NCBI RefSeq assembly: GCF_018129685.1
Contig: NZ_JAFCLG010000002.1
Location: 397,377 to 429,376, forward strand
DNA length: 32,000 nt
Direction of reading: 5' to 3'
Origin: Bradyrhizobium manausense
GTDB taxonomy: Bacteria > Pseudomonadota > Alphaproteobacteria > Rhizobiales > Xanthobacteraceae
Shown here: positions 5,070 through 26,187 of the stretch, in pieces
How positions within the stretch are numbered: position 1 is the stretch's first letter
Layout of the letters: every line of letters begins with the position of its first letter
The notes under the pieces: generated by a model
What the model saw: the letters and a program-made list of their open reading frames with translations, nothing else
What the model was told of the DNA's origin: nothing
The model's database searches: none
Translations under genes and position numbers: made by a program

Positions 5070-5163
5070 TGGCTCTCTCCGTTGTCCACGCGAGGAATGG
5101 TGCCGCTGTTCATGATGTTGTGGGGTTGGGTCGCGAACCGGCGTGCCGGTGCGCGTGACCAAA

Positions 5164-6066: not shown

Positions 6067-6268
6067 AGGTTTTCCTCCCCTTGAAAGACCTCGGCGTCGC
6101 CGCGTGCGCCGGAGATCTCTCTCGCGGAAGATGGCGCTACGGACGGGCCTGTTTTGGTCGTCTTGTCCAGGAAAGATAGCGCAGCGGGGTGAGCCGGTAT
6201 TGGACCGGCTTGCCCCGCTTCATGGTAGAATCTTGCTGGCGCCTACCAAGGGCGCGCACAGAGAACCA

Positions 6269-7147
6269 TCAGGCGCTGTTGCGGAAATTGTTTGGGGTAA
6301 CACCCAAGTACTTGCGGAATACGCGGATAAGGTGGCTCTGATCGGTGAAGCCACATTCGGCGGCAATCAATTTCAGCGGGAGGCGGCTGCTCTTCAGCAA
6401 GCACTCGGCCCTCTTGATGCGCCGCGAAAGAACATAAGAGTGCGGGGCCACTCCGAGATCAGCCTTGAATTTGCGCGAGAAGTGGTAGCTGCTCAGTCTG
6501 GCAAGACCCGCCAGATCGTCGAGCGTGATGTTTTTCGTAAGATTCTGGTCGATGAACTCGGTCATCATTCGCCGTAGGCGAGGACTGAACGAGCCCAGCT
6601 TGGGTGGCCTAAACTCCACCTTGGCATAGTGGCGCAACAGATGGATGGCGAGCTGCGTCCGGATCGAGTCAATATAGAGTCTTTCGCCGAGCCCCTCGCC
6701 CTGGAGTTCACTCTCCAGCATTTTCAGGTAAAGAGGGATGATCGGGTCCTCCGCCCGGACCCGATCATCCATTCTCACCCGATCGAGATCCTTTTCGAAG
6801 ACCTGGTTGGCGGTCTGTTCGATAATCTCGTGGCCGATGTAGATGTGCTTCACCCGGATCGGGCGATCCCATCGCCAAACCGACTGTTCGGCACGAGTCA
6901 GGAGCGAGATCACTCCCTTTTCTACGGCATCGCTGTGCCAAGGCCCGCCGCTGCTGCGTTGCATGATCGCTTTCGCGCCTTCATAGATAACGATCATGTA
7001 GTCGCGCATTAATGGAATCTTCGCTTCCTGGTCAGGATAGTGATACCCCTTGAGCGTTAGGCCGCTCCAGTCAAGATGAGAACTGTCCGCGATCTTCTCG
7101 CCGGGTATCCAGTTTGGGATCAGATCCGGCGGCACAAGCGCTGTCAT
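6269..7147 (-). CDS. AraC/XylS-family transcriptional regulator
   Basis: The C-terminal double HTH reads ITLDDLAGLARLSSYHFSRKFKADLGVAPHSYVLSRRIKRAECLL...ECGFTDQSHLIRVFRKYLGVTPNNFR. I prefer the ATG at 7147, behind GGGAGGATACAGA. Confidence 0.88.
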   Translation of the reverse strand: MTALVPPDLIPNWIPGEKIADSSHLDWSGLTLKGYHYPDQEAKIPLMRDYMIVIYEGAKAIMQRSSGGPWHSDAVEKGVISLLTRAEQSVWRWDRPIRVKHIYIGHEIIEQTANQVFEKDLDRVRMDDRVRAEDPIIPLYLKMLESELQGEGLGERLYIDSIRTQLAIHLLRHYAKVEFRPPKLGSFSPRLRRMMTEFIDQNLTKNITLDDLAGLARLSSYHFSRKFKADLGVAPHSYVLSRRIKRAECLLKSSRLPLKLIAAECGFTDQSHLIRVFRKYLGVTPNNFRNSA

Positions 7148-7369
7148 TCTGTATCCTCCCATGCTCGGCGCGCGATCCTCTAACGGGTTCTCTCAGAGCA
7201 AATGGCAGATTCTAACATACTGTATTTGCGACTAATAGTTAAGCGCATCGCGCAGCGCCTGAATTGGGCAATGTCTGCGCCTGCCTTGCGTCTCAGGCCT
7301 CGACCAGAATGGCTTCGAGGTCATCACGGATTTCGCCCAAGCGTCCGAGCGGTGGTACAAACTTGGTGC

Positions 7370-7565
7370 AGTGCACCGAAACACAATCCGGCAGCAGCTC
7401 AATCGTTCGTGCCAGCCAAGCGACCGCTTCAGCCAAGACTGGTACATGGTGCAGCGCGCCCGCGACAGGACGTTGAAAACTATCGCCCCGATCGGCGATG
7501 ATCCCGCCGTCAGCCTTCCGGCATCGCCAGCCGACCTGCCCGCAACAGACCGGCAGTCGCGGTGA
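7370..7565 (+). pseudogene. IS256-family transposase C-terminal fragment
   Basis: ..DWYMVQRARDRTLKTIAPIGDDPAVSLPA.. resembles the conserved IS256 C-terminal block (..NDEWAVQRARYMTLE.IAP..). There is no upstream catalytic region in frame. Confidence 0.45.
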
Positions 7566-7689
7566 CCTGCCGCCAACTACACCACGCCAAGCGGACACGA
7601 ATTGCTCAAAAATGTGCGCATCGAAGTCACTAAGAAGAATGATCAGGCGGTCTGTCTTAGCTGCGGTAGTTTGTTTTGTGCTCGCGATG

Positions 7690-7915
7690 GCAAATTCGCA
7701 TTTGACGTGATCCCGCGGCGGCCTTAATGCCTTCGTGGGCGTCGGACATCACCAGCTTGATGCCGCGCAGGCCGCGGCGAACGAGCTTGCGCAGGAATGT
7801 GCAGAACGTCTCGGCCTCGCAGGGGCCGATATCAAGCCCGAGTATCTCGCGCCGTCCGTCGCTGTTGATGCCGACCAAAACGATCACGGCGACCGAAACA
7901 ATTCGGCCGGCCTAG
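7690..7915 (-). mobile_element. IS256-family transposase internal fragment (remnant)
   Basis: ..RIVSVAVIVLVGINSDGRREILGLDIGPCEAETFCTFLRKLVRRGLRGIKLVMSDAHEGIKAA.. is the conserved central block of IS256/Mutator transposases. It is preceded by a stop and truncated after about 75 aa. Its orientation is opposite to the 7370-7565 fragment. Confidence 0.7.
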
Positions 7916-8399: not shown

Positions 8400-10406
8400 T
8401 CAAGCGGCGCGAATCTTCTCGAGGAAGCGGTTGACATCGGTACGCAACGTCTCGGACTGACGGCCGAGCTGCTCGGCGGAGGACAGCACCTGGCTCGCCA
8501 CGGCGCCGGTCTCTTCGGCGGCGCGGTTGACCCCGGCGATATTGGCTGAGACCTGCTCTGTCCCCTTCGCCGCCTCCTGGGTATTGCGCGCGACCTCCTG
8601 CGTCGCGGCCCCCTGCTCCGCCACCGCGCTGGCGATCGCCGTCGAGATCTCTTTGATCAGCCCGATCGTTCCGCCGATCCCCTGGATCGCCGTCACCGCC
8701 TCGCCCGTCACCGACTGGATGGAATCGATCTGCGCCGCGATGTCCTCAGTCGCCTTCGCTGTCAACGTCGCCAGCGACTTCACCTCCGAGGCCACCACCG
8801 CAAAGCCCTTGCCGACATCGCCGGCGCGTGCCGCCTCGATCGTCGCGTTAAGCGCCAGCAGGTTGGTCTGGCTGGCGATGTCCCGGATCAGCTGCACCAC
8901 CTCCCCGATCTTCTGCGCCGAGTCCGCCAGTGTGTTCACCGTGCCATTCGTCCGCTGCGCGTCCTCCACCGCCTGCCGGGCGATCTGCGACGCGTGCGAC
9001 ACCTGCCGGCTGATCTCGCTGATCGAACTCGACATCTCTTCCGAGGACGCCGCCACTGTCTGCACATTGGCCGAGGTTTCCTTCGAAGCCGCCGCCGCCC
9101 CCCTGGTCTGGCGCTGCGTCTCCTCCGCCGTCGCCGACATGCCGGTGGCGGTGGCGCGCAGCTCGGTCGAGGCCGAGGCTATGTTCTCGAGCGCCTGGCG
9201 CACCGAGCGATCGAACTCGACAATATAATCCTCGATAACCTTTTGCCGCTGCTCCTTGCTCTCCTGCTCCGCGCGCCGCTCCGCCGCCAGCCGGTCCGCG
9301 TCGATCATGCTGCGCTTGAACACCTCGACGGCCCTCGCCATCTCACCGATCTCGTCCTTGTTGTTCAGCGCCGGAACGTCGACGGATTTGTCGCCGCCCG
9401 CCAGCTTCTTCATAACCGCGGTCATGCCGGAGATCGGAATGACGATGCCACGGTCGATCACATAACCCAGAAAAATGACGATCAGCACACCGATTCCCAC
9501 CAACAGGCTCAGTCGCGTCATGGTGTTAGAGACGGCCTCGTCCGTGTCCTGCGCCGTACGAACGAGATCAGCATCGAGCGTCTGCTGTGCCGCGGCTCCG
9601 AGCTCCTTGATTTTCAGGAATTGCGGCACAATTGTCTTCTCGTAAAGCTCGTCCCCCTGCAGGGCCGCTTCCGAGGCCACGGCGAAGCTTGCGCTATAAG
9701 CATCGAGCGCCGCTTTGACCGCCGGCAGTAAATCGTGAATGCCCGCCGCCGCCGTGTTCTTCTGCAGAGCGCCCAGCGCCGCCATCGCTTTCTCAACATT
9801 GGTCCTGACGCTGGCGGGGCCTTTCACGTCATGAGTGGCGAGAAAGCGCCAATTCGCAAGGCGGGCGAGAAGCACCGCCGTCTCCACCTCGTTCGCCTGA
9901 CGATTGACGGCGATCTCGCCCTGACCGCGTACCGCATCGAGCAACTGCGCCACCGCAGCCGTCAGCTCGTCACCGCGGGAGAACTGCTTGGCTCGTGCCG
10001 CGGCAAAGTTGGTGCCGACCGCGACGAGCTTATCGAAATTCTGCTTGGCGGAAGTGATGGCGTCCGAGGTTTCGTCATAGAGGCGACGGCGCTCAGAAGA
10101 GACTGACGCTTGCTTCGCCGCGGCCAGCAACTCGATCGCCTTCGTCTGCTCGGCGTCGAACGCCTTGATGGTCGCTTCGTCCTGATCCGTCTGGAACTTG
10201 AGGGCGTTTCGCAGCATTTGCCCGGCGACGTTCTGTACCTCGAGATTGCGCGTGGCGTTGCTCGTAATGCCGGCGAACCACGCTATTTGGCGTTCGACGC
10301 CAATGAGCTGAAAGACCCCCACGGCGATCAGCCCGCCGGCGATCATCAGCAGTCCACCGAGGCCGGCATAGGCCCTCGACCGGATCCGAAAGTCGCTGAG
10401 ACGCAT
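8400..10406 (-). CDS. Methyl-accepting chemotaxis protein (two TM helices, periplasmic helical-bundle sensor, HAMP, MA signalling domain)
   Basis: N-terminal TM, a ~270-aa periplasmic region, a second TM and then HAMP (..[37 protein letters not shown]). The highly conserved MA core is present: [53 protein letters not shown]. Confidence 0.92.
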
Positions 10407-10835: not shown

Positions 10836-11681
10836 TTACCGCGTCTCTTGGGATCCGGCAGATCCGAAAAATCGCAATATCTGATTTTGCATGGGCGGCC
10901 AGTCATTATGCGAGCCGCCTCCCTCACAGTAAACGGTCATCCCGTTGGGTGCGCAACCTTCGAATGCTAGGCAGCCACTGGCTTGCGGTGCGGGCGGTTT
11001 TGCGATGTCGCAGGCATTGCAGCGCGCCCACCACAGGGCGGCTTCCTTTCCCCAGCCCGGAAAATGTGTGTCCTGCTTGCCGTGCATGACCATCACCGGA
11101 ATGGGCTTCGGGCATCGAAAGGCTTCGAGGTCTTTCCGAGAGAAGCCCGCGGCGCTCGGAGCAATTGCCGACACGGTGCCTGTAGTCTCTTCCAGAACGG
11201 CGAGCGCAATCGACACCGTTCCGCCATCGGAGTGGCCGGTCGCATACACTCGATTTGGATCGACGCACCAAACGGCGGCAACTTCTTTAGGTAGCTGCGC
11301 AAGCTTTTCTATCGTCTTCACCGATAGAGGACGGCTACCGACATAAACCACGACGAAGCCGCTGCGGGTTGCCTCGGTGGTGAGGCGGGTGAGGGATTCG
11401 CTCTGTTTCGCATCATAGCCCGCCGGCGCATAGACGACGAGCAGCGGATGCGCATAGGTCGGATCGAGGTTTGCAGGCGCCCTCACGTTATAATGAAAGC
11501 CATCGCGCGATGTAAGGCCGTCGGTGGCACCTGGTCCGGCCGGCTTGCTGCCGGGGGAACAGGAGCCGCGGCGCACAGCGTGCGCATAGTCGAAGCTGAC
11601 GACCGAAGTCCCCTCCGGCGGCTCCGATGATCCGGAGCATCCAGAACACGATGCCACCACAAGCGCAATTACAACGCGCAT
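10836..11681 (-). CDS. Secreted or lipoprotein alpha/beta-hydrolase, PHB-depolymerase/feruloyl-esterase-like (LpqC-type)
   Basis: GHSDGG nucleophile elbow in the context ..DPNRVYATGHSDGGTVS.., and a Cys-rich C-terminal region. MRVVIALVVASCSGC gives a lipobox-like VASC. The start is uncertain (ATG 11681 versus GTG 11765). Confidence 0.7.
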   Translation of the reverse strand: MRVVIALVVASCSGCSGSSEPPEGTSVVSFDYAHAVRRGSCSPGSKPAGPGATDGLTSRDGFHYNVRAPANLDPTYAHPLLVVYAPAGYDAKQSESLTRLTTEATRSGFVVVYVGSRPLSVKTIEKLAQLPKEVAAVWCVDPNRVYATGHSDGGTVSIALAVLEETTGTVSAIAPSAAGFSRKDLEAFRCPKPIPVMVMHGKQDTHFPGWGKEAALWWARCNACDIAKPPAPQASGCLAFEGCAPNGMTVYCEGGGSHNDWPPMQNQILRFFGSAGSQETR

Positions 11682-11779
11682 CCTCAGCTTCGCCTCGCCG
11701 GTCGCGCTAGCTCTCCTAGCGAGGTTGGCGGCAAGGCCCGTTCCCCCTCCTGGCCAAACAATCACCGGCCTTATCCCAG

Positions 11780-12388
11780 CTAGTTTGGTGGTATGCTGAG
11801 GCGGGCGTCCAATTTCTTTCTGACACGTGCCGAATAACGATATAAGGCAAATCCTACCAATGGAACTACGATGAAAAGCAGGTATTTCTCGTAGAACGAC
11901 TTTCCAGAAGCCACACTGAAGGGAAACCGTGAGACGTATTCGCCCTTTGCGCCCGCGGTAACCAGTCCGATAAATTTTCCAGCCTTATCGAACGTATATT
12001 CCAAGGCAATGCTGCCAGAGGGGTAAACTTTGGGCTGCAGGTGCACAACGGTGATGGTCTCCAAATTGCTGTTGTCTCCCGTATCCCGCACGATTCGCAC
12101 CTCGATCGGGATGTCGCGCAGAGCATCATCAACCGCGTCCAGCACCACCACCGTTTTGCCGGTCTCCGGAATGTCTTCGCAGAACTCCCTGCTGCCGGTT
12201 GCTTGCGGCTGGTACCCGGTAAAGTGCATGATGTATGCTCCCAATCGGAGCCTACACACGTCATTTTCCATACTGACGCCACCGTGGGAAGAGGCCGGCT
12301 GGGACGACAAAACCAGCAGAGGCACTGCAAACGAAAGGCCGCGCAATGCCGATCTGGAGTACCTCCTGATCGTGAGCTTATCGACCAT
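11780..12388 (-). CDS. Exported protein with a C-terminal membrane anchor, in the PmoD/AmoD position of the CuMMO operon. Family not verified.
   Basis: Signal peptide (..FAVPLLVLSSQPASSHG), a ~140-aa soluble domain with a single Cys (ENDVCRLRLGAYIMHF), one C-terminal TM (LLFIVVPLVGFALY) and a basic tail. It starts 29 nt after the pmoB stop on the same strand. Confidence 0.6.
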   Translation of the reverse strand: MVDKLTIRRYSRSALRGLSFAVPLLVLSSQPASSHGGVSMENDVCRLRLGAYIMHFTGYQPQATGSREFCEDIPETGKTVVVLDAVDDALRDIPIEVRIVRDTGDNSNLETITVVHLQPKVYPSGSIALEYTFDKAGKFIGLVTAGAKGEYVSRFPFSVASGKSFYEKYLLFIVVPLVGFALYRYSARVRKKLDARLSIPPN

Positions 12389-12417
12389 CGCGCAGCTTCG
12401 TCCTATTAAACCTGGCT

Positions 12418-13677
12418 TCAGATCGTCTTTTTGAAGACTGGAACAATGGGCCCGTATACTTCGCTCATGGAGCGGTTGCCTTTCCCGTCATAGAAAAACA
12501 GCAATCCGCCCATTCTACTGTCAACGTTAGAAAGAAAGCTCACCAAACGTTCTACTTCCCATGCCGCATCCGTTGTATCCAGGTTCACCAGACGGCTTTC
12601 ACCAGGTGCAAGCGGCTCCGGATGGTCGATGACAAGGCCGTTCCGGGGGACCAGCTCCTTCGGAAATTTCGAACTGACTGCCGCCACCGCCGCAGGAAGA
12701 CTCTTATTTATGAAACGCAGGTTAGCGGTGGTGAACTCGCCAACGCTCACGGGTTGATCGGACGTATTGGTCATCTCTACGCTCAGGCGCATGGACCGAC
12801 CGGGAACGTCGTACTCGGCCCTCTTGAACTTGATTTCAACCGCGTGGGGCGGCTTGGGCAGTGGTGGAGTGGAAAGAGACCCCGATTGAAGCGGAACCAG
12901 TTCTGGAAACTCGGACGTCGTTCTGGTGTATCCGACCAGCACCACGATCGCCAAAAGGACCAGCAGGGCCGCCGCAACTTTGTCGTCCATCGGCGTGATG
13001 AGAAGGTCCTCTCGCCCCTTCTTGACCACGAGCCAGCGCGAAATGATGAGGGGCCTGCGCAGCCACCATAGGATCCACACCGCGGCAATCAGCCCGAACC
13101 CAAACTGCCACATCTGCACGCGTGAAACGCCAAACGTTTGCAGATCGTCGATCTTGTTTCCAGTCAAGGTCGTGAGCGGATCCTTGAAATCCGCTTCGTT
13201 GCCGCTGACAGTTATCCATTCTCCCGGCCCAACGACCGCCCCGGCCCCATGGATGTTCATGACCGGATGAAGGTGCCACTGTCCCACCTTACGCGCCTTC
13301 ATAACGAGTTTGAAGTCATAATCCCGTCCGACGATCAAACCCTTGGTGGACTGCCGTGCGGGAATTTCGTTGATGTACGATTCTACGCGGGTCATGACGG
13401 CGCCGGGCGAGCCGTTGGAAAGGAACACCAGATTGGGCAGACTCACCGAATCCGGCCAATCGTTCAATAAGTGAAACTTGCCCTGGACGGTTACTGTATC
13501 GTTGACGTTAAGCGCATCGGTTGACCAAGTGACGTCATACCAATGCACAGTGCGCGTTCTGATGTAAGGCTCGGTCGCCCGCTCGCCGTGCGCGAATGCG
13601 GCCTGATCCATAAGGGAAAATAGCAATGTCGTCGCGGCCCAAACGAGCAACGTCGCCTTTTTCATTATCTTGCTCAT
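12418..13677 (-). CDS. pmoB: Copper membrane monooxygenase subunit B (PmoB/AmoB family)
   Basis: The signal peptide ends AFA, so the mature N-terminus is HGERATEPYIRTRTVHWYDVTW (compare PmoB HGEKSQAAFMRMRTIHWYD). The WHLHPV HxH motif, two central TM helices and a C-terminal cupredoxin-like domain are present. The start overlaps the pmoA stop (ATGA, 13674-13677). Confidence 0.9.
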   Translation of the reverse strand: MSKIMKKATLLVWAATTLLFSLMDQAAFAHGERATEPYIRTRTVHWYDVTWSTDALNVNDTVTVQGKFHLLNDWPDSVSLPNLVFLSNGSPGAVMTRVESYINEIPARQSTKGLIVGRDYDFKLVMKARKVGQWHLHPVMNIHGAGAVVGPGEWITVSGNEADFKDPLTTLTGNKIDDLQTFGVSRVQMWQFGFGLIAAVWILWWLRRPLIISRWLVVKKGREDLLITPMDDKVAAALLVLLAIVVLVGYTRTTSEFPELVPLQSGSLSTPPLPKPPHAVEIKFKRAEYDVPGRSMRLSVEMTNTSDQPVSVGEFTTANLRFINKSLPAAVAAVSSKFPKELVPRNGLVIDHPEPLAPGESRLVNLDTTDAAWEVERLVSFLSNVDSRMGGLLFFYDGKGNRSMSEVYGPIVPVFKKTI

Positions 13678-14477
13678 AGAGCACCCGCATCGATTTTAGC
13701 GCCATAAAGCTCCTTGAAGCGGTATCCCACCGGTATGTATTTGGGTGTGCAGGCGACCACACCCATCAACCAGAACACCGAGTAGGCGAACATGCAAACG
13801 AACGCAGAAAAGAACGCTGAGACCCAGTTGGCGGAGTCGCCGAACGTGCGCAAGGTTCCGCGTTCGATAATTCTTATGTATTCAGGCGTGCCGGAACGAG
13901 GGAAGACGTAGCCGATGATATCGGCAACAGACGCCATCTCACCCATATGCTCTGCTGGCTGGAAATATGGCGCCAGATAAATCCAGTTTGTCGGAAAGAA
14001 CGAGAGACCATAAATAACGCCGCCGAACACGGCCGTTATAACCCAGCTTCGGCTCAGCACAAGGATGAAGTCGAGTGCCATCGCTCCGACTAGACCGGTC
14101 GCTGGAACAACGAGACTGAGCGGGAAGTAGGCCATGCCTTCCCAAGCATGGTATCTGACAATCCAGACGCCGATCAGAAACAGAAGTGCGCTAGCTGTCG
14201 CTCCGATTGGCAGGCGAAATAGAGTCCAGAAGATCGCCTGAAATGCCGCGGCCGACATTATGGAGACTATCGGCGTTATCAGAATCCAATACTGTCTGTC
14301 TTTCCAGTCAATAAAAAAATCCCAGTCCCCAGCGAAAAGGAGAAAATGGATGTGCGTAACGGACCATACAAGGAAGGCAGCTATGACGACAATCAGGTAG
14401 TCGAAAGTTCGTGAATAGCGCGCTATTCTTGGCGACATTTCTGCCGCAGCTAAAATTGCTTGATCGTTGTCAGTCAT
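13674..14477 (-). CDS. pmoA: Copper membrane monooxygenase subunit A (PmoA/AmoA family)
   Basis: Blocks GDWDFFIDWKDRQYW, FRLPIGAT, VRYHAWEGMAYFPLSLVVPA, SWVITAVFGG and GTPEYIRIIERGTLRTFG are collinear with conserved PmoA/AmoA blocks. Confidence 0.92.
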   Translation of the reverse strand: MTDNDQAILAAAEMSPRIARYSRTFDYLIVVIAAFLVWSVTHIHFLLFAGDWDFFIDWKDRQYWILITPIVSIMSAAAFQAIFWTLFRLPIGATASALLFLIGVWIVRYHAWEGMAYFPLSLVVPATGLVGAMALDFILVLSRSWVITAVFGGVIYGLSFFPTNWIYLAPYFQPAEHMGEMASVADIIGYVFPRSGTPEYIRIIERGTLRTFGDSANWVSAFFSAFVCMFAYSVFWLMGVVACTPKYIPVGYRFKELYGAKIDAGAL

Positions 14478-14480
14478 GCT

Positions 14481-14490
14481 CCCCCCCCCC
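14481..14490 (-). repeat. G10 homopolymer (C10 on the + strand) 3 nt upstream of the pmoA ATG, occupying the SD position
   Basis: Read directly: 14471 cagtcatgct cccccccccc ggtaattc. On the mRNA strand this is ..ACCGGGGGGGGGGAGCATG. Confidence 0.9.
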
Positions 14491-14532
14491 GGTAATTCGT
14501 ATTCTTATGATTAGGCAACGGTTCTTTGCCGA

Positions 14533-14580
14533 AGGCGGTGTCCTACCTGTCAGTCAGTCGATTCAGCAGAGACACCGCCT
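14533..14580 (-). promoter_or_regulatory. Perfect 10-bp stem with a 28-nt loop in the pmoC-pmoA intergenic spacer (candidate mRNA processing or stability element)
   Basis: AGGCGGTGTC (14533-14542) is the exact reverse complement of GACACCGCCT (14571-14580). No U-tract follows on the mRNA strand, so this is not a classical intrinsic terminator. Confidence 0.4.
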
Positions 14581-14620
14581 ACAGTCGCATTGTCCGCCAT
14601 CGCCGGCATCAGCCAAGGCG

Positions 14621-15400
14621 TCAGGCTTTCGCCAAGTTTGCGCCATCGATCTCTTTGAAAAGCTCCGCCATCCTCATGGTCGCCTGAAGAAGGACGCCGC
14701 CAAGAGCAAAGCCGGTCCACCCAAGAACCGGGAAGCCCCAATGGAGCGGATGGCTGAAGATTTCTTCAGTGAGCCAGAACGCGTGGCCCCACTCGTTATA
14801 GCCAAGGTTCGGCAGAATGAGCCCGGGCCCGAGCACAGCCATGATGAGCGGCACCGAATAGCCTTTTGAGAATTTGGGAATCCGCGTGGTAGCATATAGA
14901 AGGCTGCTAACGCCCAAGATGATATACAGTGGAATACAAGCGTAAAATACGACGATATGGCTGGGAGTAAGCGCGGTGTCGCGAATCACGGTTTGATGCC
15001 AAGTGGCATCGCTCTCACCAAAGAAGCTAGCGATCCAAAGAAAAGAAAACGTATACAGCAAGAACCACGCGACGAGGCTAAAGTAGCGGCGCAGTTCCGT
15101 TTCGGCGTCGATTTTGTCGAGGTTCTTATCCCGGGTGAGCCAAAGGTAGGCCCAAATGGCGAAGCCCACCCCGAAAATAAGCGGTACCTCGACTTTGAAC
15201 AGCGTCAGCCAGTAGGTCGCAAATTCGGGGGATGTCGAATCCAGGCCGTACTTGAATGCAAATGCCTGCTGGTAAAGCCGAAGCCCTACGTAGATGGCGA
15301 GCAGCACTCCCCAGGAGATGGCCACCGGCACGAGATTGATAAGCTTTTTCGTATGTTGCGGGTCAGCCGCCCGCGGCTCAGATTCTAAGATGGCATGCAT
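14621..15400 (-). CDS. pmoC: Copper membrane monooxygenase subunit C (PmoC/AmoC family)
   Basis: ESDATWHQTVIRDTALTPSHIV contains the D..H..H metal site. NEWGHAFWLTEEIFSHPLHWGF contains the N..H..H site. I prefer the ATG at 15400 (MHAILE..), 8 nt behind GAGGAGG. The track start at 15436 adds 12 codons. Confidence 0.92.
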   Translation of the reverse strand: MHAILESEPRAADPQHTKKLINLVPVAISWGVLLAIYVGLRLYQQAFAFKYGLDSTSPEFATYWLTLFKVEVPLIFGVGFAIWAYLWLTRDKNLDKIDAETELRRYFSLVAWFLLYTFSFLWIASFFGESDATWHQTVIRDTALTPSHIVVFYACIPLYIILGVSSLLYATTRIPKFSKGYSVPLIMAVLGPGLILPNLGYNEWGHAFWLTEEIFSHPLHWGFPVLGWTGFALGGVLLQATMRMAELFKEIDGANLAKA

Positions 15401-15581
15401 AGTCCCGCCTCCTCTCGCTGATGATAACTTAGTCAACTATTGTCCTATGACTTGGGATACGGTCCTTTAGTATTAGGGTCCCACCTGCCCGCGGTCGTTG
15501 CTGAAGCGCCTGACGGACCTATCCGACTGGCGTCCGGCCCAAGGCCCTGATCCCGGAAAGTGGATTCCGGTATCTTGGCCT

Positions 15582-15599
15582 TGTCACTGTAGAGTGACA
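15582..15599. promoter_or_regulatory. 7-4-7 perfect palindrome TGTCACT-GTAG-AGTGACA about 180 bp upstream of pmoC (candidate operator)
   Basis: Read directly at 15582-15599. It lies between pmoC and the IS110 remnant. Confidence 0.25.
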
Positions 15600-15719
15600 G
15601 GCGAAGCAGACAGCTCGTTGGATTCCTGGTCGCGGGCGCGGTCGTAGCCCGGCAACGGCGTCTGCGTCGGGTCTCTCGATCGAACAGTCGCAAGGACGGC
15701 GGCCTGGCGCTGCAAGTCG

Positions 15720-16160
15720 GCATACAAGTCTAATCCATGACAGCAGCCTCGTTCGCGCAGCAAGCGCCTTCGCTTACCATCGCCGATGGCATCCGCAGGC
15801 TCCGGCACGAGGGTGTTAGCCGCCTCATGTTGGAGGCGATCGGCATCGTTAATCCGCGCCGCATCAAGGCCTTTCCGCGAGACCGGGGGGCGGCGCGCCA
15901 AGACCGACAGGCTGGACGCGCGGCTGATTGCGCGCTTCGCTCTTGTCATGATCGACGAGATCCGCCCGCTGTCTTCCGCCGAACAGCAAGCCCTGAAGGC
16001 GCTGTCGCCAGTCGACCGAGATGGTCGCGATAGAGAAGACGCGGCTCAAGCAGGCGGTCGAGCCCATGCTGTTGGCAAGCCGCCGCACCCTTTACTCGAT
16101 GAGGTTTGCGAGAGGATAAGAAGAGATGCAGGATCGGTCTTACCGGCGCATGCGACACTG
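15720..16160 (+). mobile_element. IS110-family transposase fragment, multiply frameshifted (remnant)
   Basis: The pieces ..IVNPRRIKAFPRD.., ..GRRAKTDRLDARLIARFALVM..IRPLSSAEQQALKAL.. and ..EKTRLKQAVEPMLLAS.. sit in three different frames. They match the conserved IS110 N-terminal/central blocks. Confidence 0.65.
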
Positions 16161-16617
16161 GTGACCCAAATGGCCCGTTGAGGCCTGTCCATTAATGAGA
16201 TCGCACGCGCGCGCGCTGATATCCATATTGGTCCGGAGCAAAACTCGCTCCAATCAGAGACCGGATACATTGATACAAGACCGCTGACGCCAGCTCGACG
16301 AAAACCTCTTGCGACGCGCGGCCGGAGGCGCCACGAAGGTTGTGCGCGCCTGAACCCTGCAATCTCAAACCCGCAAGCGAGCCAAAAACTGACTCGCGCT
16401 CAATGGCTTAGAAATTTTTCACGCACGACTTTGTATGTCGTCGTCTATCAGCTCAATGGCAGGGTGTTGCCGTGACAACGGCTGGCGTCTGCTTCGCTAA
16501 TGTTTGCATCGACGGCGAAGGCTTCGCCCTTGATCAGGCCGGCATTCATGCATGCCGTACAGTCTCAAAAATGTATCGGAGAATGTCACTATCGCGGAAT
16601 CGAAGTTCAAGCCACGC

Positions 16618-18303
16618 TCAAGCGACATCGACCATGACAGAGTTTCTCAACATCAACATCACAGCTTCGCTTGCCGGCCGTGGCGGGCTGAACAAATATC
16701 CCTGCATTTCGGTGCAACCCTCGGCACAAAGGCGGTCGAACTGTTCCTGTGTTTCGACCCCTTCCGCCGTCGTCGTGATGCCAAGACTCGTTCCAAGGCC
16801 GGCAACCGCGCGGACGATTGCCATGCAATCCGGCCGTTCCGTGAGCTCGCGCACGAACGACTGATCGATCTTGATCTTGTCGAACGGGAAACTGCGCAGA
16901 TAGCTTAGCGAAGAATAGCCGGTGCCGAAGTCGTCCATCGAAATGTGCACGCCGAGTTTGCGCAGTTGATGGAGGGTGGCCAAATTCGCGTCGGTGTCGC
17001 CTAGAAGCACGGTTTCGGTGATCTCCAACTCCAGCCGCTCGGGTGGCAGCCGCGAATAAGCCAGCGCGGTCAGAACCGCCTGGACCAGATTGCGGCTCTT
17101 GAACTGGACTGGCGAAAGATTTACGGCCACTTTAATGGGGAGCGGCCAGGTGATCGCTTCGGCGCAGGCTTTGCGCAAGACCCATTCGCCCAGCGGAATA
17201 ATGAGGCCTGTTTCTTCGGCGAGAGGAATGAACTCGGCTGGCGAAACCATGCCGCGCTCGGGATTATGCCATCGCAGCAAGGCCTCGAAGCCGCTGACGT
17301 CGCCACTTCGCAAATTGACCACCGGCTGATAGTAGAGTTCAAACTCGCCGTTGCTCAAGGCTTTGCGAAGCTCGAGCTCGAGCGTCCGCCGCGCCTGGAT
17401 ACGCCGATCCATTTCCGGCTCAAAAAAGCTAAAACGCCCGCGGCCATCCACCTTGGCACGGTACAAGGCAATGTCTGCATTGCGCAGCATCCCCTCGGTG
17501 GCATCGCCATCGCGTGGTGCAATCGCGATGCCTATGCTGGCCCCGACAATGATCTCTTGCCCCTGGATTTCGTAAGGGGAACCCAGAACATCAATCAGCT
17601 TGCGCGCCAGCCCTTCGGCGTCGCGATCTCCATCTATTATCGGCATGATAACCGCGAACTCGTCGCCGCCGAAGCGCGCGACGACATCGGTGTCGCGCAA
17701 ACAATTGCTGAGCCGTTCCGCCACCATTTTGAGCAGCACGTCCCCGACCGGGTGACCGAGCGTATCGTTGACATTCTTGAAGTGGTCGAGGTCGAGACAT
17801 AGCACGGCGAGATTGCCACCGCGGGCGATGCGCGCGAGTTCTTCGCCCAGGCGTTTATGAAACAGCACGCGATTTGGCAGTTCGGTCAACGCGTCGTGAT
17901 GGGCCATGTGTTCGATGCGGGCTTCATTGCGGCGCCGTTCTGTCACGTCGATATATGTTGTGACGAACCCGCCGCCTTCGACCGGAGCGCCCCGGACCTC
18001 GATGGTAATCCCGTCGGGACGTTGGCGTTCGAATACGTGAGGCTTTCGCGCCTTCGCCAGTTCCATTCGGGCCGAAACCTGTTGTTCGACGTCGCCGGGT
18101 CCGTATTCGCCGCGGCGTGCGTTGAAGCGGAATATTTCTTCGAGAAAGGGCGGATCACCGACAAACATGCTGTCCGGCAGATCGAGAACTCGGCGCGCCG
18201 CCGGATTGGCAAAGATGATGCGCAGGTCGCAATCCATGACCGAGATCCCGCCGGGGAAATTGTCAAGGATGGCTTGCAGCAAATAGTTTTGATCCGAACG
18301 CAC
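16618..18303 (-). CDS. PAS-GGDEF-EAL signalling protein (diguanylate cyclase/phosphodiesterase)
   Basis: N-terminal PAS-like region, then the GGDEF site RFGGDEFAV. EAL motifs: FEALLRW, ..ELEITE.., DDFGTGYSSLSYL and QGYLFSPP. GTG start at 18303. Confidence 0.92.
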   Translation of the reverse strand: MRSDQNYLLQAILDNFPGGISVMDCDLRIIFANPAARRVLDLPDSMFVGDPPFLEEIFRFNARRGEYGPGDVEQQVSARMELAKARKPHVFERQRPDGITIEVRGAPVEGGGFVTTYIDVTERRRNEARIEHMAHHDALTELPNRVLFHKRLGEELARIARGGNLAVLCLDLDHFKNVNDTLGHPVGDVLLKMVAERLSNCLRDTDVVARFGGDEFAVIMPIIDGDRDAEGLARKLIDVLGSPYEIQGQEIIVGASIGIAIAPRDGDATEGMLRNADIALYRAKVDGRGRFSFFEPEMDRRIQARRTLELELRKALSNGEFELYYQPVVNLRSGDVSGFEALLRWHNPERGMVSPAEFIPLAEETGLIIPLGEWVLRKACAEAITWPLPIKVAVNLSPVQFKSRNLVQAVLTALAYSRLPPERLELEITETVLLGDTDANLATLHQLRKLGVHISMDDFGTGYSSLSYLRSFPFDKIKIDQSFVRELTERPDCMAIVRAVAGLGTSLGITTTAEGVETQEQFDRLCAEGCTEMQGYLFSPPRPASEAVMLMLRNSVMVDVA

Positions 18304-18689
18304 GACAGTATCCCCAGACGGTATTTATCCGCGCTCGAATACAAGCCTGATCTCGATGTATCCTTCGTGCATACGAGACCTGCGCGGTTGTTAAAACATA
18401 ACGATGGTAAGCATTTCGTGAATTTCTGCGGTTAATAGGCAGGCGGAAGGCAGCGGCCCGAGGCGGCGGCTTCACTATAAGTCGTCCAGCTTGGCAGGTT
18501 GGTCCAAACCGCAGGCTCAACCCAGCCCCATCCCGCAGCCAGATCCCGCCGTCCCTGCCCGACCCGCGTCCTCCGCAGACAGATTGACCTTGCGTCACGG
18601 CAGTTCAACCCGGCTGGCCCGCACTGGGCCTGATCGTTACCTTCACGTCAAAGGAAAGCCTCTCAATTTCTCCGCGGATAGCACCAAGC

Positions 18690-18965
18690 CGACCGTCTTG
18701 AGCTCATCGACGAATTGGTCGCGCCAAGATGGCCGCCTTAGTCGTGTCGAGCCGGGAACGGAGTTTGTCTCACGCGACCTCGATCTGTGGGCCTGTCAAC
18801 GAAGCGTCACGCTGGACTTCAGCCGGTTAGGCAAGCCGACGCGACAACGCGTTCATCAAAACCTTCAACGGGTCCATCCGCGCGGAGTGTCTGATACATC
18901 ACTCGGCAACTTGACGCCGCACGAGTTCGCACAACAGACTCAAACAGCCCGAGAAATTGCCTAGC
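18690..18965 (+). mobile_element. IS3-family transposase (orfB) 3'-terminal fragment with frameshift and internal deletion (remnant)
   Basis: ..GTEFVSRDLDLWACQRSVTLDFSRLGKPT.. followed, after a 1-nt shift, by DNAFIKTFNGSIRAECL. This matches the IS3 integrase-core C-terminal block (DNGPEF.S..L..WA...GV.L.FSRPGKPTDNAFIE.FNG..R.ECL). Confidence 0.65.
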
Positions 18966-19074
18966 GCTACTTTGGCAGATTTTTTGGTTTGATCGGCGCA
19001 ACTGGATTCCCGAATCAGGTTTTCAATGATCCATGGGTGGTCGGCTTTTGGACGGCCGACCATGTTGGAAAAAG

Positions 19075-19530
19075 TCGAGGTGGGAAGAAGAGCTTGCGCG
19101 CTGGCTTGAGCCGTTCCTGGATTGCCTGGGTCACAGGGCGCGCCGAGCGATCGCAAGAGCGTCCAGCCTATGGCGGCGCGGCTGGCGCCGGGCGACTATG
19201 ACCAGTTGCACCATTTCATCGCTGATGGCGTCTGGGATGCGGCGCCGTTGGAGTCGGACCTGTTGATTCAGGCCGACCGCCTCGTCGGCGGCAAAGATGC
19301 GGTGCCGGTCATCAATGACACAGCGATTCCGATGAAGGGCGATCGTTCGGTTGGTGTCGCTCCGCAACATGTCTCATCTCTCGGCAAGATGGCCAATTGC
19401 CAAACATTGGTGTCGCTGACGCTTGCGCGGGGTGAAGTGCCGGTAATGGTGGCATTACGTCTCTTCGTTCCCGGGAGCTGGACGAGCAATCCGGTGCGTT
19501 TGAAGCGTGCGGGCGTTCCAGTCTAGCACC
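19075..19530 (+). mobile_element. IS701-family transposase 5' fragment (~150 codons, frameshifted, truncated)
   Basis: WEEELARWLEPFLDCLGHRARR.. is followed, after a frame change, by DRKSVQPMAARLAPGDYDQLHHFIADGVWDAAPLESDLLIQADRLVGG..VINDTAIPMKGDRSVGVAPQ..GKMANCQTLVSLTLARGEVPVMVALRLF.P.SWTS. This is the typical N-terminal region of IS701-type DDE transposases. Confidence 0.65.
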
Positions 19531-19743
19531 GCGCGGCACGACCCCCTAGCAGGCCAGTCACCGGCAGCGCAATCGGAAGAAGCACCGTCAGAAGATATGG
19601 ATGGCGGCCTTTGAGCAGTTCCGCCTGCAGGGCAACCTGCCGAGTTTTGTTGCATATTCTTGCGGTAGTCGGAAGAAAGCCCTATCATCCAAAGAAAAAC
19701 GCCTTGGCAACGCACCAAGGCTGACGAGAGAGGGATCAACCAG

Positions 19744-20919
19744 GTGGGTAGGACCGATCACCGGTTCAGCAATGAATCTGGCGTCGCCGTCGTCCAGGCG
19801 AAAGCGTCGTCGGCAGTCGAGGCGGCGGCGGAGATTGCCCGGCAACTGCCCAGGGACGGACTGGCGATTGTTATCGTCTTTTGTTCGCCTTGCTATGATC
19901 CGCACGAGTTTGCCGCTGAAATCGCTGAAATCTATGGACCCATTCCGGTCTATGGCTGCACGACTGCTGGCGAACTTGCGCCCGGAGGCTGGGATGACAA
20001 CAGCGTTGTCGCGCTGGGATTTAGCGCGCAGGACTTTAGCGCAGTCGCGAGGCCATTACTCGATCTCGCCCAATTTCGGGTCGAGGATGGCCGCAGAATT
20101 GGCGCCGAGCTGCGGCAAGAATTTACACGATGTTCGCCAGAAGTAGCGGATCGACAATCCTTTGGACTTTTGCTGATTGATGGCATGTGCAAACGCGAGG
20201 ATGTGGTGATGTCGGCGCTCTACGCGTCGCTCGATAATATTCACGTCGTTGGAGGATCCGCGGGCGACGGTCTGCGTTTTGGACAGACGTGGGTCTTTTG
20301 CGACGGCCAGGCCCATACCGACGCCGCGGTGCTGATCATTCTGACAACGTCACTGCCCTTTCGCCTATTCAAATGCGATAACTTCGAGCCGACATCGACA
20401 AAGATGGTGGTAACCGAAGCTGATATAGAATTGCGCGTTGTCAAGGAGCTGAATGCGGAGCCGGCTGCCCAGGAATATTCGCGTGCAGTTGGAATCGGTG
20501 ACACCCACCTTGATATGTTTTCGTTTGCTTCTCATCCCGTTCTTGTCCGGGCCGGCGGCACGTACTATGCACGCTCGATCCAGCGGGTAAATCCTGACGA
20601 CGGATCTCTCAATTTTTACTGCGCTATCGATGAAGGAATGGTCCTCACCGTAGCGAAAGCCCGTAATCCGATCGGAGCAATGCTCGAGCTGTTTGCTGAA
20701 ACACGGGCAGAGATCGGCGAGGTCTCGCTCTATATCGGCTTTGAATGTCTGTTTCGGCGGCTGGATGCGGAACAGCATCAATTCGCCCGCGACATGTCTG
20801 AACTTTATCGCGAAAATCGGGTGGTCGGGTTTCACACCTACGGCGAACAGTACCGCGCAATGCACCTGAACCAGACATTGACCGGAGTTGCGATCGGCAA
20901 GAGGCCGGTTTCGCCATGA
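19744..20919 (+). CDS. FIST-domain sensor protein (FIST_N/FIST_C, NosP-like architecture)
   Basis: Soluble 391-aa protein with FIST-type blocks: ..IVFCSPCYDPHEF..PVYGCTTAGEL.. and ..IHVVGGSAGDGLRFGQTWVF... Its C-terminal block is ..LYIGFECLFRR......NRVVGFHTYGEQ. GTG start behind GAGAGAGGGA. The stop overlaps the kinase start (ATGA). Confidence 0.85.
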   Translation: MGRTDHRFSNESGVAVVQAKASSAVEAAAEIARQLPRDGLAIVIVFCSPCYDPHEFAAEIAEIYGPIPVYGCTTAGELAPGGWDDNSVVALGFSAQDFSAVARPLLDLAQFRVEDGRRIGAELRQEFTRCSPEVADRQSFGLLLIDGMCKREDVVMSALYASLDNIHVVGGSAGDGLRFGQTWVFCDGQAHTDAAVLIILTTSLPFRLFKCDNFEPTSTKMVVTEADIELRVVKELNAEPAAQEYSRAVGIGDTHLDMFSFASHPVLVRAGGTYYARSIQRVNPDDGSLNFYCAIDEGMVLTVAKARNPIGAMLELFAETRAEIGEVSLYIGFECLFRRLDAEQHQFARDMSELYRENRVVGFHTYGEQYRAMHLNQTLTGVAIGKRPVSP

Positions 20920-22268
20920 TGCCGCAAGATCAAGATTCCGTAGAGGCGCTGCAACGGGAGACCACGAAACTCAGGAAGATCAACGCCGCGCTGATGTCAC
21001 GCGTGGAACGGTCGATGGATCAGCAATCCAATGCGTTTTCATTGTTCGAGACGGCTATCGCGCTGGATCATCAGGTTCGCAGCCGAACCCAACAATTGCA
21101 GGAGGCGTTACGTTCGATTGAGCGCACCAACGGCTATCTCTATCGTGCCAAACAGCAGGCCGAGGCGGCCAGTTCGCTGAAATCTTCCGTGTTGATTTCC
21201 GTAACCCACGATCTCCTACAGCCGTTAAATGCGGCGAGGCTGACGCTCTCGGCGTTCGCAGAGATGGCTGTTTCGGAACAGGGAACCGCGCTCATCGAGC
21301 AAGTTGACCGGTCCTTGCTTACGCTTGAGGATTTGCTAAGAACACTGCTCGATATTTCCAAGCTCGACGTCGGCGTTTTGAAGCCGGAACCGCGTCCGCT
21401 ATTGATTTCGTCCTTGTTCGACCCGCTTAAACAGGAATTCGCGCCGTTTGCCGCGAAGCGAGGCTTGTCATTGACGATTCAGCCGTCGTCCCACGCGGTG
21501 ATTTCAGACCCGATGATGCTTCGCCGGATTTTGCAGAATCTGTTGGCCAACGCCCTCAGGTACACTCAGAAAGGCAGAGTCCTGATGGGTTGCCGGCAGA
21601 AGGGCGACAAACTCCAGATACAAGTTCATGATACCGGACCTGGTATACCCGAAGGCCAGCGGCAAGCGATCTTTCTGGAATTCCAGCGCGGTGAAGCAGG
21701 CGACGGAGATGAAGCCGGTTTCGGGCTTGGTCTATCGATCGTGCGCCGCTTCGCGACGGCTCTCGGCCATGAAATTCATCTTGCTTCGCGCGTAGGTCAC
21801 GGCTCGTCCTTTTCTGTCACCCTGCCTCGTACAGAACTCGAGGCGTACCCGGAGACGGGGCGCGAGCTTCAATATGTCGACTTCCAATACAGCGGACTCG
21901 AAGGTGCAAAAATACTGCTCGTTGAAAACGATTCATCGAGCGCGGAGGCGATGGCCTTCCTGCTTGAAGAATGGGGATGCGACGTCGCCAAGACGATATC
22001 CGCAGCAGATGCGTTGGAGCGAATCGGAGCACTCGGCGGCGCGCCTGATGCGATCATCGCGGATCTTCATCTAGACGGCAATGAAAGCGGTCTGGAGGCC
22101 ATCAGTGCGGTACGCCAGCAGGTCAGGATCGAAATTCCCGCCATGATAGTCACTGCGGACTATTCGGTAGAGGCAGCGAGGGAGGCTTCGATCTACGGCA
22201 TTGAACTCCTTAAGAAGCCTGTCAAACCCGCTGAGATGCGATCTCTGTTATCATTCCTGTTGGCTTGA
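20916..22268 (+). CDS. Cytoplasmic hybrid sensor histidine kinase (coiled coil, HisKA, HATPase_c, receiver)
   Basis: H-box SVTHDLLQPLNAARL, N-box LLANALRYT, G1 HDTGPGIP and G2 GFGLGLSIV. The C-terminal REC domain reads KILLVENDSS...DAIIADLHLDG...KKP. No TM segment is present. Confidence 0.9.
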   Translation: MMPQDQDSVEALQRETTKLRKINAALMSRVERSMDQQSNAFSLFETAIALDHQVRSRTQQLQEALRSIERTNGYLYRAKQQAEAASSLKSSVLISVTHDLLQPLNAARLTLSAFAEMAVSEQGTALIEQVDRSLLTLEDLLRTLLDISKLDVGVLKPEPRPLLISSLFDPLKQEFAPFAAKRGLSLTIQPSSHAVISDPMMLRRILQNLLANALRYTQKGRVLMGCRQKGDKLQIQVHDTGPGIPEGQRQAIFLEFQRGEAGDGDEAGFGLGLSIVRRFATALGHEIHLASRVGHGSSFSVTLPRTELEAYPETGRELQYVDFQYSGLEGAKILLVENDSSSAEAMAFLLEEWGCDVAKTISAADALERIGALGGAPDAIIADLHLDGNESGLEAISAVRQQVRIEIPAMIVTADYSVEAAREASIYGIELLKKPVKPAEMRSLLSFLLA

Positions 22269-22322
22269 GATGGGCTCATTCGAATCGCGTTGTATCGGTC
22301 GATCAAGCGGCCGCAAGGCCTA

Positions 22323-23018: not shown

Positions 23019-23286
23019 GTTGCAACGATCCTTGTATCGGTCACAATATATCCGGAACGAAATAATGCAGAACGTCCCTCCATATAGCCAGTTGCGACCT
23101 GTGGCGGAAGTCACTTTTTGGAGCTGGCCGTAAGCTGCGAACCATCGTTTGCCGGGGCCGTCCGAGGCCATTGATCGATGCAGGACGGCATTCGCGACCT
23201 ACTACCATGTAGTCCTTGCGTCATGGTAAGTCTTGTAGATCATAAAGGAAAATCCCCGCAGGCTGGGGAAATACTCTGGTGCCGAT

Positions 23287-26163: not shown

Positions 26164-26187
26164 CCTCAACTCCCTGTCGTTTAGTTT

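Follow-up and report, generated by a model that had tools for sequence, protein, structure and literature searches.

A copper membrane monooxygenase operon of probable betaproteobacterial ancestry and probable short-chain alkane specificity in Bradyrhizobium

Results and discussion

The 32,000-nucleotide stretch of Bradyrhizobium manausense DNA analysed here (contig NZ_JAFCLG010000002.1; hereafter the window) carries five co-oriented genes on its minus strand in the order xmoC-xmoA-xmoB-xmoD-orf5, the first three of which encode the subunits of a copper membrane monooxygenase (CuMMO). Judged from these genes and their relatives, the operon is probably functional, was probably acquired horizontally, and would probably act on short-chain alkanes, possibly on a broader range of hydrocarbons. 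A short-chain hydrocarbon substrate is suggested both by the gene neighbourhoods of the clade, with their alcohol and aldehyde dehydrogenases, acyl-CoA genes and AlkB, and by the placement of the operon among betaproteobacterial sequences.

An intact operon with all copper ligands

The operon was identified as a CuMMO by three subunits above the Pfam gathering score in the order C-A-B. XmoC, XmoA and XmoB score 292, 270 and 441 bits against AmoC, AMO and Monooxygenase_B (gathering cut-offs 26.7, 27.5 and 22.7), and the matches run nearly end to end, covering profile positions 14-243 of 245, 3-237 of 238 and 1-380 of 380, respectively. In addition, XmoB aligns with PmoB of Methylococcus capsulatus with an E-value of 8.7e-107. 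A first-pass annotation, made from the sequence alone, had proposed an intact C-A-B operon at 11780-15400 on the minus strand, an ATGA overlap between the A and B genes, and conserved metal-site motifs in the B and C subunits; the operon does lie at these coordinates, the xmoA/xmoB junction reads TCTATGAGCAA and contains the overlap, and all of the motifs are present. The true start of xmoC is most likely the ATG at 15400, which has a GAGAGGAGG ribosome-binding site ahead of it; the same 259 residues are called by gene callers in five independent metagenome contigs, and an alternative, longer open reading frame (ORF) starting at a TTG extends to 15436.

The copper ligands follow the pattern of the CuMMO family, with an N-terminal His and an HxH motif in the B subunit, and D-x3-H-x12-H and N-x3-H-x13-H in the C subunit. 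Specifically, the CuB ligands of XmoB are H30, straight after the AFA cleavage site, and H135 and H137 in the motif WHLHP; XmoC carries the CuC ligands D131, H135 and H148 and the CuD ligands N202, H206 and H220. The corresponding spacings (4 and 13 for CuC, 4 and 14 for CuD) are those of D156/H160/H173 and N227/H231/H245 in M. capsulatus PmoC. The XmoC ligands are kept in 28-29 of the 29 clade members. Two relatives depart from the pattern at CuB: in a second Bradyrhizobium lineage (locus L033) and in an alphaproteobacterial metagenome-assembled genome (MAG; locus L030), the N-terminal His of XmoB is replaced by Leu and the second His of the HxH motif by Gln, while all six XmoC ligands are retained. 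The window XmoB retains all three of its ligands. The replacements in these relatives have a parallel in Verrucomicrobia, where loss of CuB is known.

The host is a Bradyrhizobium, a bacterium of soil and legume nodules, in agreement with the rhizobium-like, non-methanotroph background that the first-pass annotation had surmised: XmoA is identical to RefSeq WP_249125015.1 of B. manausense, where it bears a generic pmoA/amoA name, and shares 98% identity with its counterpart in B. diazoefficiens SZCCT0138. Between these two strains, the ratios of non-synonymous to synonymous differences (pN/pS) are 0.18 for xmoC, 0.18 for xmoA, 0.27 for xmoB and 0.16 for xmoD, with no indels, which indicates that the xmoCABD genes are under constraint, as expected of purifying selection. 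XmoB recurs with its exact sequence on 22 metagenome contigs, where the gene order is also the same, and XmoA is seen on 85 contigs. A 75-residue fragment of the window XmoA has been deposited as WP_306460189.1 from 'Acinetobacter baumannii', on a contig of 227 bp, almost certainly because that assembly is contaminated.

Two local irregularities were seen among the near-identical copies. A homopolymeric G tract at 14481-14490 (minus strand) lies directly 5' of the xmoA start, in the ribosome-binding region (CC-G10-AGC-ATG); it comprises ten residues in the window as well as in four metagenome contigs, eleven in locus L002 and six in SZCCT0138, a variation in length that may reflect slippage or sequencing error. 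In locus L001 (JGI 3300012981 contig), otherwise identical to the window, xmoD is called at 149 residues and the downstream chemotaxis gene is split into products of 505 and 166 residues; these differences are probably assembly or frameshift errors, the alternative being real lesions in one population.

Phylogeny and origin

Relatives were sought in one genome per species, which yielded 27 loci, and XmoA sequences were compared in a neighbour-joining tree of 261 columns with 100 bootstraps, whose named references were solved PmoA and AmoA sequences. XmoA belongs to a 30-taxon group (85% bootstrap) that stands apart from the solved PmoA (47-49% identity) and AmoA (42-43%) sequences. Within that group, the two Bradyrhizobium sequences, from the window and from SZCCT0138, nest amid Betaproteobacteria in an eight-taxon clade with 100% bootstrap, at identities of 69-79% overall (Burkholderiaceae MAG 79%, Sterolibacterium 75%, Rhodoferax OTU1 72%, Methylibium 72%, Acidovorax 70%). 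The second Bradyrhizobium lineage (P0057; 456 blocks of the assembly collection) falls in a different subclade with Solimonas aquatica, and its XmoA is 65% identical to that of the window. The nesting within Betaproteobacteria, apart from this second lineage, supports horizontal acquisition of the operon from a betaproteobacterial donor in what would be an independent event. Few Bradyrhizobium species representatives carry the operon.

The divergence from known methanotroph and nitrifier enzymes that the first-pass annotation had noted is borne out by this tree, in which XmoA sits within neither clade at high identity, and by the NCBIfam equivalog models, of which AmoA_BACT gives 276.7 (cut-off 290) and CH4_NH3mon_ox_A (TIGR03080) 262.3 (cut-off 318.15). 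A particulate methane monooxygenase (pMMO) would be recognised by an A subunit that reaches the CH4_NH3mon_ox_A cut-off and groups with PmoA, and XmoA does neither. It groups instead with Rhodoferax-type sequences, and a pmoD-like gene follows xmoB, the combination by which the xmoCABD lineage of Betaproteobacteria and Nevskiales is recognised.

Such operons had also been described in the first-pass annotation as rare and essentially uncharacterised in rhizobia-like hosts, which overlooks that the lineage was already on record: Khadka et al. (2018; PMC6215863) noted CuMMOs of unknown function in Solimonas aquatica DSM 25927 and Bradyrhizobium sp. ERR11, Rochman et al. (2020; ISME J 14:714) are reported to have tied betaproteobacterial relatives to alkane use, and the protein itself is in RefSeq. 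The tree list of Khadka et al. does not place ERR11 beside Solimonas, so the ERR11 enzyme may be yet another lineage. Solimonas and ERR11 resemble the window host in being non-methanotrophic, non-nitrifying proteobacteria, and Solimonas has an XmoA 65% identical to that of the window together with an xmoD gene; the subclade of Solimonas and the Bradyrhizobium MAG is nevertheless separate from the window lineage, and its Bradyrhizobium XmoB has lost two CuB ligands that the window XmoB has kept. Burkholderiales and Nevskiales CuMMO operons have in addition been catalogued in groundwater MAGs. The literature on SZCCT strains and on Bradyrhizobium pmo genes yielded nothing on the window operon.

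XmoD as an AmoD-type protein

The 'fourth gene' of the first-pass annotation proved real and conserved, but not anonymous. XmoD has no Pfam or NCBIfam match; a profile built from 49 of its more than 560 homologues, however, matches the PmoD crystal structure 6CPD with an E-value of 3.9e-30. Its AlphaFold (AF2) model (mean predicted local distance difference test score, pLDDT, 84.8) comprises an N-terminal signal helix, a beta-sandwich at residues 45-159 and a C-terminal membrane helix at 165-197, and superposes on 6CPD in Foldseek with a template modelling (TM) score of 0.84 at 33% identity. Two classes of these proteins have been distinguished by Fisher et al. (2018): formation of a CuA site was found only in the Cx7MxH class, and the Cx8MHxnC class is annotated amoD in ammonia oxidisers and is typically operon-linked. 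XmoD carries C45-x8-M54-H55...C70, of which C45 and C70 are invariant in the 49 homologues, and not the CuA-forming Cx7MxHxnC motif, which places it in the Cx8MHxnC class. By these comparisons, xmoD encodes a PmoD/AmoD homologue of the AmoD type. It is 53% identical to the Nitrosospira protein at the amoD position of an amoCAB-E-D-copC-copD operon, and a homologue adjoins xmoB in almost all clade loci long enough to show it.

One further residue of XmoD stands out. His35, the first residue past the predicted AxA cleavage site (HGG), is invariant in all 49 aligned homologues; residues 32-40 are modelled with low AlphaFold confidence. AmoD-type proteins may possess a copper site at an amino-terminal His.

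The esterase gene orf5

A fifth operon gene, orf5, had gone unmentioned in the first-pass annotation. Its start lies 14 nt past xmoD, and the product shows matches to NCBIfam e_dPHAscl_type1 (1.5e-11, below cut-off) and Pfam AXE1 (1.2e-05). The residues invariant among its homologues include a G-H-S179-D-G elbow, D232, H286 and nine Cys, and the best folds for its AF2 model (pLDDT 80.6) are acetyl-xylan and feruloyl esterases (CE1) and polyhydroxybutyrate (PHB) depolymerase, the name under which others have annotated it. In about 17 loci, a homologue of orf5 is found in the vicinity of xmo genes, in several arrangements. The idea that orf5 is a universal CuMMO accessory gene was rejected on finding homologues of about 50% identity in Nitrospira amid housekeeping lipid-synthesis genes, away from amo. 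We regard orf5, on the evidence of its sequence relatives, as a recruited esterase and not a universal CuMMO component.

Gene neighbourhoods

The annotated neighbourhoods of the clade are consistently carbon-catabolic. In the closest non-Bradyrhizobium locus, from the Burkholderiaceae MAG, a MimR_N/GAF regulator lies upstream of xmoCABD, and orf5, an aldehyde dehydrogenase, an acyl-CoA synthetase and an acetyl-CoA hydrolase/transferase lie downstream. The second Bradyrhizobium lineage has genes for an AraC regulator, an aldehyde dehydrogenase and a quinohaemoprotein-type pyrroloquinoline quinone alcohol dehydrogenase (PQQ-ADH) directly upstream of xmoC, with copC and a copD-cytochrome c gene downstream. 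The operon is surrounded in Solimonas aquatica by a PQQ-ADH, a Zn-ADH, an esterase, copCD and a sigma-54 activator, and in a marine gammaproteobacterium by TetR, enoyl-CoA hydratase, PrpD, CoA-transferases and acyl-CoA dehydrogenases. In B. diazoefficiens SZCCT0138, an AlkS-like regulator, AlkB and a two-domain rubredoxin are encoded within 5 kb downstream of xmoCABD, and the AlkB carries all of its His boxes (HELGHK, EHNKGHH, LQRHSDHHA and NYIEHYG).

The window and SZCCT0138 are colinear over window positions 10861-24442 at 98.3% identity, the break falling right at the end of orf5; the window segment 7414-10861 is absent from SZCCT0138. Downstream of orf5 in that strain (locus L006, 15231-20014), the regulator is an 867-residue LuxR/MalT protein, and it, AlkB and the rubredoxin occupy the place of the window's chemotaxis gene and Baeyer-Villiger monooxygenase (BVMO) cluster. 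A 465-bp piece of the 5' region of the window's AraC gene (6975-7414), at 83% identity, is found next to orf5 in SZCCT0138.

Table 1. Positions and supporting matches of the operon genes and of other features in the window
Feature	Position	Strand	Description	Evidence
xmoC	14621-15400	minus	CuMMO C subunit, 259 aa	Pfam AmoC 3.6e-87
xmoA	13674-14477	minus	CuMMO A subunit, 267 aa	Pfam AMO 2.2e-80
xmoB	12418-13677	minus	CuMMO B subunit, 419 aa, signal peptide	Pfam Monooxygenase_B 7.2e-132
xmoD	11780-12388	minus	Predicted PmoD/AmoD-family periplasmic cupredoxin-like protein, 202 aa	Profile match to 6CPD, AF2, Foldseek
orf5	10836-11765	minus	Lipoprotein-like secreted serine hydrolase, PHB-depolymerase/CE1 esterase type, 309 aa from GTG, or 281 aa	
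chn-like ketone/cycloalkanone cluster	2600-7162	minus	AraC 6269-7162; alpha/beta-hydrolase esterase 5164-6066; BVMO 3450-5069; short-chain dehydrogenase/reductase (SDR) 2600-3391	Pfam
Mutator-family transposase fragment	7657-7887	minus	76 aa of about 379	Pfam Transposase_mut 2.4e-14
Methyl-accepting chemotaxis protein (MCP)	8400-10406	minus	Co-oriented, 430 nt downstream of orf5	Pfam MCPsignal and HAMP
IS110-family transposase fragment	15786-16181	plus	Profile 80-130 of 155	Pfam DEDD_Tnp_IS110 6.9e-07
DDE_5 transposase fragment	19122-19526	plus	Profile 25-152 of 272	Pfam DDE_5 4.5e-38
MoxJ-like binding protein fused to cytochrome c	24952-26169	minus	Single ORF	TIGR03871, below cut-off
PQQ alcohol dehydrogenase, methanol/ethanol family	26188-27906	minus		TIGR03075 5.8e-207
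copC	29197-29652	plus		NCBIfam CopC 2.8e-20, below cut-off
copD-cytochrome c fusion	29649-31646	plus	665 aa	NCBIfam CopD 2.7e-24, below cut-off; Pfam CopD and Cytochrom_C, above

Together, the BVMO, esterase, SDR and AraC genes of the window have the appearance of a chnB/chnC/chnA/chnR-type cluster, which may have been acquired on a separate occasion. An actinobacterial enzyme, the cyclohexanone monooxygenase of Thermocrispum municipale (PDB 5M0Z), matches the BVMO at 78% identity over 522 residues (E 2e-290); the G+C content of the BVMO gene at third codon positions (GC3), 83%, is the maximum in the window. We considered whether the cluster might represent an acmAB-like acetone pathway conserved with xmo, and rejected this on its single-lineage linkage and its cyclohexanone-monooxygenase type. 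The MCP gene likewise stands at the downstream side of the operon in the window lineage only and is absent there in SZCCT0138; its position resembles that of alkN in the alk cluster of Pseudomonas putida.

Further from the operon, the PQQ dehydrogenase has as its best solved relative the XoxF-type methanol dehydrogenase of Methylacidiphilum (4MAE), and carries the WDYDG motif, which is the lanthanide-type signature. A distance of 14 kb, taken up in part by sensor-kinase, LuxR and PQQ-ADH genes, separates the window copC and copD genes from the operon; their products are 56% and 41% identical to those encoded after xmoD in the Bradyrhizobium MAG. Homologues of copC-copD directly follow xmoD in Solimonas and in the Bradyrhizobium MAG, and amoD in Nitrosospira; the copD fusions of all three show weak to faint AhpC/TSA-like C-terminal matches. 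Long ORFs at 119-1018, 1150-1683, 1983-2531 and 23589-24365 have no Pfam or NCBIfam match.

Base composition, transposase fragments and the promoter region

The first-pass annotation had placed the operon in an insertion sequence (IS)-bounded, AT-richer island. Three IS fragments do flank it, and its G+C content is lower than that of the left flank, but the fragments are decayed, no repeats bound the operon, and the right flank is of similar composition (xmoCABD 54.3%, left flank 61.3%, right flank 56.6%, whole window 58.1%). The four 60-nt G+C counts on which the claim drew (25, 25, 46 and 43) are exact, yet extremes. Similarly, GC3 is 59-68% in the xmo genes, 70-83% in the left-hand genes and 58-69% in the right-hand genes. 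The operon is thus close in composition to the right-hand 16 kb, as part of a larger lower-GC stretch and not of a sharply bounded AT-rich island; the right two-thirds of the window look like a lower-GC accessory region. The first kilobase of the window has 67-70% G+C.

The three transposase fragments are all truncated and belong to three families. The IS110-family fragment, about 390 bp upstream of xmoC, is also present in SZCCT0138, and the Mutator-family fragment lies within segment 7414-10861, which that strain lacks. A search for repeats bounding the operon found only short pairs at chance level, and tRNA and Rfam searches of the window gave no match. The marks of a mobile island, namely intact IS copies or matching terminal repeats at either end, an abrupt change in composition, or an integration site such as a tRNA, are therefore lacking, and the evidence for transfer is phylogenetic, not structural. 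Plasmid origin was rejected as well, the sole matches being of 180 bp at 70% identity to Methylocystis amoC.

Searches for regulatory signals were negative. The sigma-54 pattern TGGCAC-N5-TTGC, allowing up to two mismatches, matched 35 times in the window against 34.9 expected, and nowhere within 320 nt upstream of xmoC; a sigma-70 scan found no site upstream of xmoC, and the corresponding regions of the relatives shared no conserved motif.

Substrate and alternative explanations

The substrate, left as unknown in the first-pass annotation, is narrowed by the clade gene neighbourhoods, which point to short-chain hydrocarbons. We propose that XmoCAB would be a membrane enzyme with CuC and CuD in XmoC and CuB in XmoB, hydroxylating a short-chain hydrocarbon that is most likely a C2-C4 alkane, possibly a larger or cyclic alkane. 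The alcohol product would pass through PQQ or SDR alcohol dehydrogenases and aldehyde dehydrogenases into acyl-CoA metabolism, and the AmoD-type XmoD, CopC and CopD-cytochrome c may serve copper supply or electron delivery.

The closest known systems are the xmoCABD operons of Betaproteobacteria such as Rhodoferax and Polaromonas, which are reportedly tied to alkane use; 13C-ethane and 13C-propane are said to be assimilated there, and methane not, with induction by propane. The window operon shares with them the C-A-B-D order, the carbon-catabolic neighbourhoods, the XmoA identity of 69-79% within the fully supported clade, and an orf5 after xmoD that is about 50% identical to that of the window. 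It differs in its alphaproteobacterial host, Bradyrhizobium; moreover, where those loci have a divergently oriented MimR-like regulator and, downstream, aldehyde dehydrogenase and acyl-CoA synthetase genes, it has an IS110 fragment and an MCP gene. The function proposed for the window operon, oxidation of C2-C4 hydrocarbons in a heterotroph, is that of the actinobacterial CuMMOs hmoCAB (Mycobacterium NBB4) and bmoCAB (Nocardioides CF8). Those operons differ from it by lacking a PmoD-type gene; Mycobacteria and Nocardioides encode CuMMOs and no PmoD (Fisher et al. 2018).

Several observations weigh against an alkane-oxidising operon. The proposed substrate assignment draws on gene content, and the tie to 'alkane' CuMMOs on taxon names in the tree. 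The BVMO cluster is linked to xmo only in the window's lineage, with the MCP gene and a transposase fragment in between. Upstream of xmoC, neither a promoter nor a dedicated regulator was found, and an IS110 fragment lies where relatives carry a regulator; the operon may therefore be poorly expressed. Finally, two subunit scores and the accessory genes point towards ammonia oxidisers, as follows.

An ammonia monooxygenase in a heterotroph, converting NH3 to hydroxylamine for nitrification or co-oxidation with XmoD and CopCD acting as in Nitrosospira or Nitrosomonas, is very unlikely in our estimation, even though XmoC and XmoB score above the equivalog cut-offs of AmoC_BACT (335, cut-off 319) and AmoB_BACT (533, cut-off 336). 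The architecture of xmoD (amoD-type), copC and copD-cytochrome c is that of the betaproteobacterial ammonia oxidisers, and the operon and its surroundings share with their amoCAB-amoE-amoD-copC-copD the three-subunit core, identical copper ligands, the AmoD-type XmoD with its close Nitrosospira counterpart, and copC and copD-cytochrome c; the relatives also share the order xmoD-copC-copD(cytochrome c)-small ORF. Against this, XmoA lies below the AmoA_BACT cut-off and outside the AmoA group, amoE, the second PmoD-like gene of these operons, is missing from the window, copCD is not contiguous with the operon, the host genera are heterotrophic, and the neighbours encode alcohol and aldehyde dehydrogenases and acyl-CoA enzymes. 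No ORF with at least three CxxCH motifs, as expected of a protein like hydroxylamine oxidoreductase (HAO), was found in 640 kb of related loci (the search took in the 32 kb of the window, 21 kb of the sister genome and 38 other loci), although this carries little weight, since the Nitrosospira control locus has no hao within 8 kb either. Slightly less credible still is a pMMO that makes Bradyrhizobium a facultative methane oxidiser, its methanol being handled by the XoxF-like PQQ dehydrogenase 11 kb off. The operon resembles pmoCAB of Methylococcus capsulatus Bath, Methylocystis and Methylotuvimicrobium in fold families, gene order, B-subunit signal peptide and CuB/CuC/CuD spacing, every pMMO copper ligand is kept, and the PQQ dehydrogenase comes with a MoxJ-like protein and cytochrome c, besides having XoxF as its best solved relative. 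XoxF, however, is common in Bradyrhizobium whether or not a CuMMO is present, XmoA stands apart from PmoA in identity, clade and TIGR03080 score, the host is not a methanotroph, and other clade members occur in non-methanotrophic genera; the neighbouring aldehyde dehydrogenase, acyl-CoA synthetase, PrpD and AlkB suit substrates of C2 or larger.

A CuMMO for another small molecule is possible, if doubtful. Acetone is one candidate, by analogy with Methylacidiphilum PmoCAB3; ethylene or another alkene, by analogy with Haliea, is a second, and cycloalkanes that would feed into the neighbouring chn-like cluster are a third. MimR controls acetone/propane monooxygenase, and a MimR_N-domain regulator is found in the closest non-Bradyrhizobium locus; the chnBCAR-like cluster with its cyclohexanone monooxygenase-type BVMO lies in the window itself. 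A verrucomicrobial CuMMO is known to oxidise acetone (PMC8630023). The chn-like cluster is, however, linked in the window lineage only, no epoxide-handling genes were seen across the annotated neighbourhoods, and the aldehyde dehydrogenase and acyl-CoA synthetase neighbours suit terminal alkane oxidation better. The last alternative, a silent passenger that entered with a mobile island, was deprived of its regulator by IS activity and is now unexpressed or useless, we hold to be the most improbable of all. The IS110 fragment in place of the relatives' divergent regulator, the failure to find a convincing sigma-70 or sigma-54 promoter, the presence of three IS fragments within 12 kb and the rarity of the operon in the genus would all fit such a history, yet the low pN/pS with no frameshifts between two diverged strains, the recurrence of XmoB and XmoA on metagenome contigs and the intact ligands all speak against it.

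Short-chain alkane oxidation by a functional operon thus remains the reading that we consider probable. A bolder proposal, which we rate as rather unlikely, is that Bradyrhizobium uses xmoCABD-orf5 for growth on gaseous alkanes or for scavenging them, or alternatively for heterotrophic ammonia oxidation, and that orf5, which accompanies xmoCABD and copCD in no fewer than four arrangements, is an unrecognised accessory of this CuMMO lineage.

Significance

The presence of the window genes in RefSeq under a generic name, the CuMMOs of Bradyrhizobium and Solimonas, and PmoD-type fourth genes were known before. Added here are the likely betaproteobacterial ancestry of the Bradyrhizobium lineage and its apparent independence from the second lineage, the predicted AmoD-type identity of xmoD, the conserved esterase gene orf5, and the consistency of the hydrocarbon-catabolic neighbourhoods. 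The oxidation of methane and that of ammonia have CuMMOs as their key enzymes, and the non-canonical relatives of these enzymes are largely uncharacterised. In soil metagenomes, generic 'pmoA/amoA' labels may be mistaken for signs of methanotrophy or nitrification; the second Bradyrhizobium lineage by itself is indexed in 456 blocks of the assembly collection. Bradyrhizobium is genetically tractable, and cultivable strains that combine all copper sites with an AmoD-type partner and CopCD would be better suited than uncultured Betaproteobacteria to questions of CuMMO substrate and of PmoD/AmoD function. If C2-C4 alkanes are indeed oxidised, trace-gas hydrocarbon oxidation would join the repertoire of a dominant soil genus.

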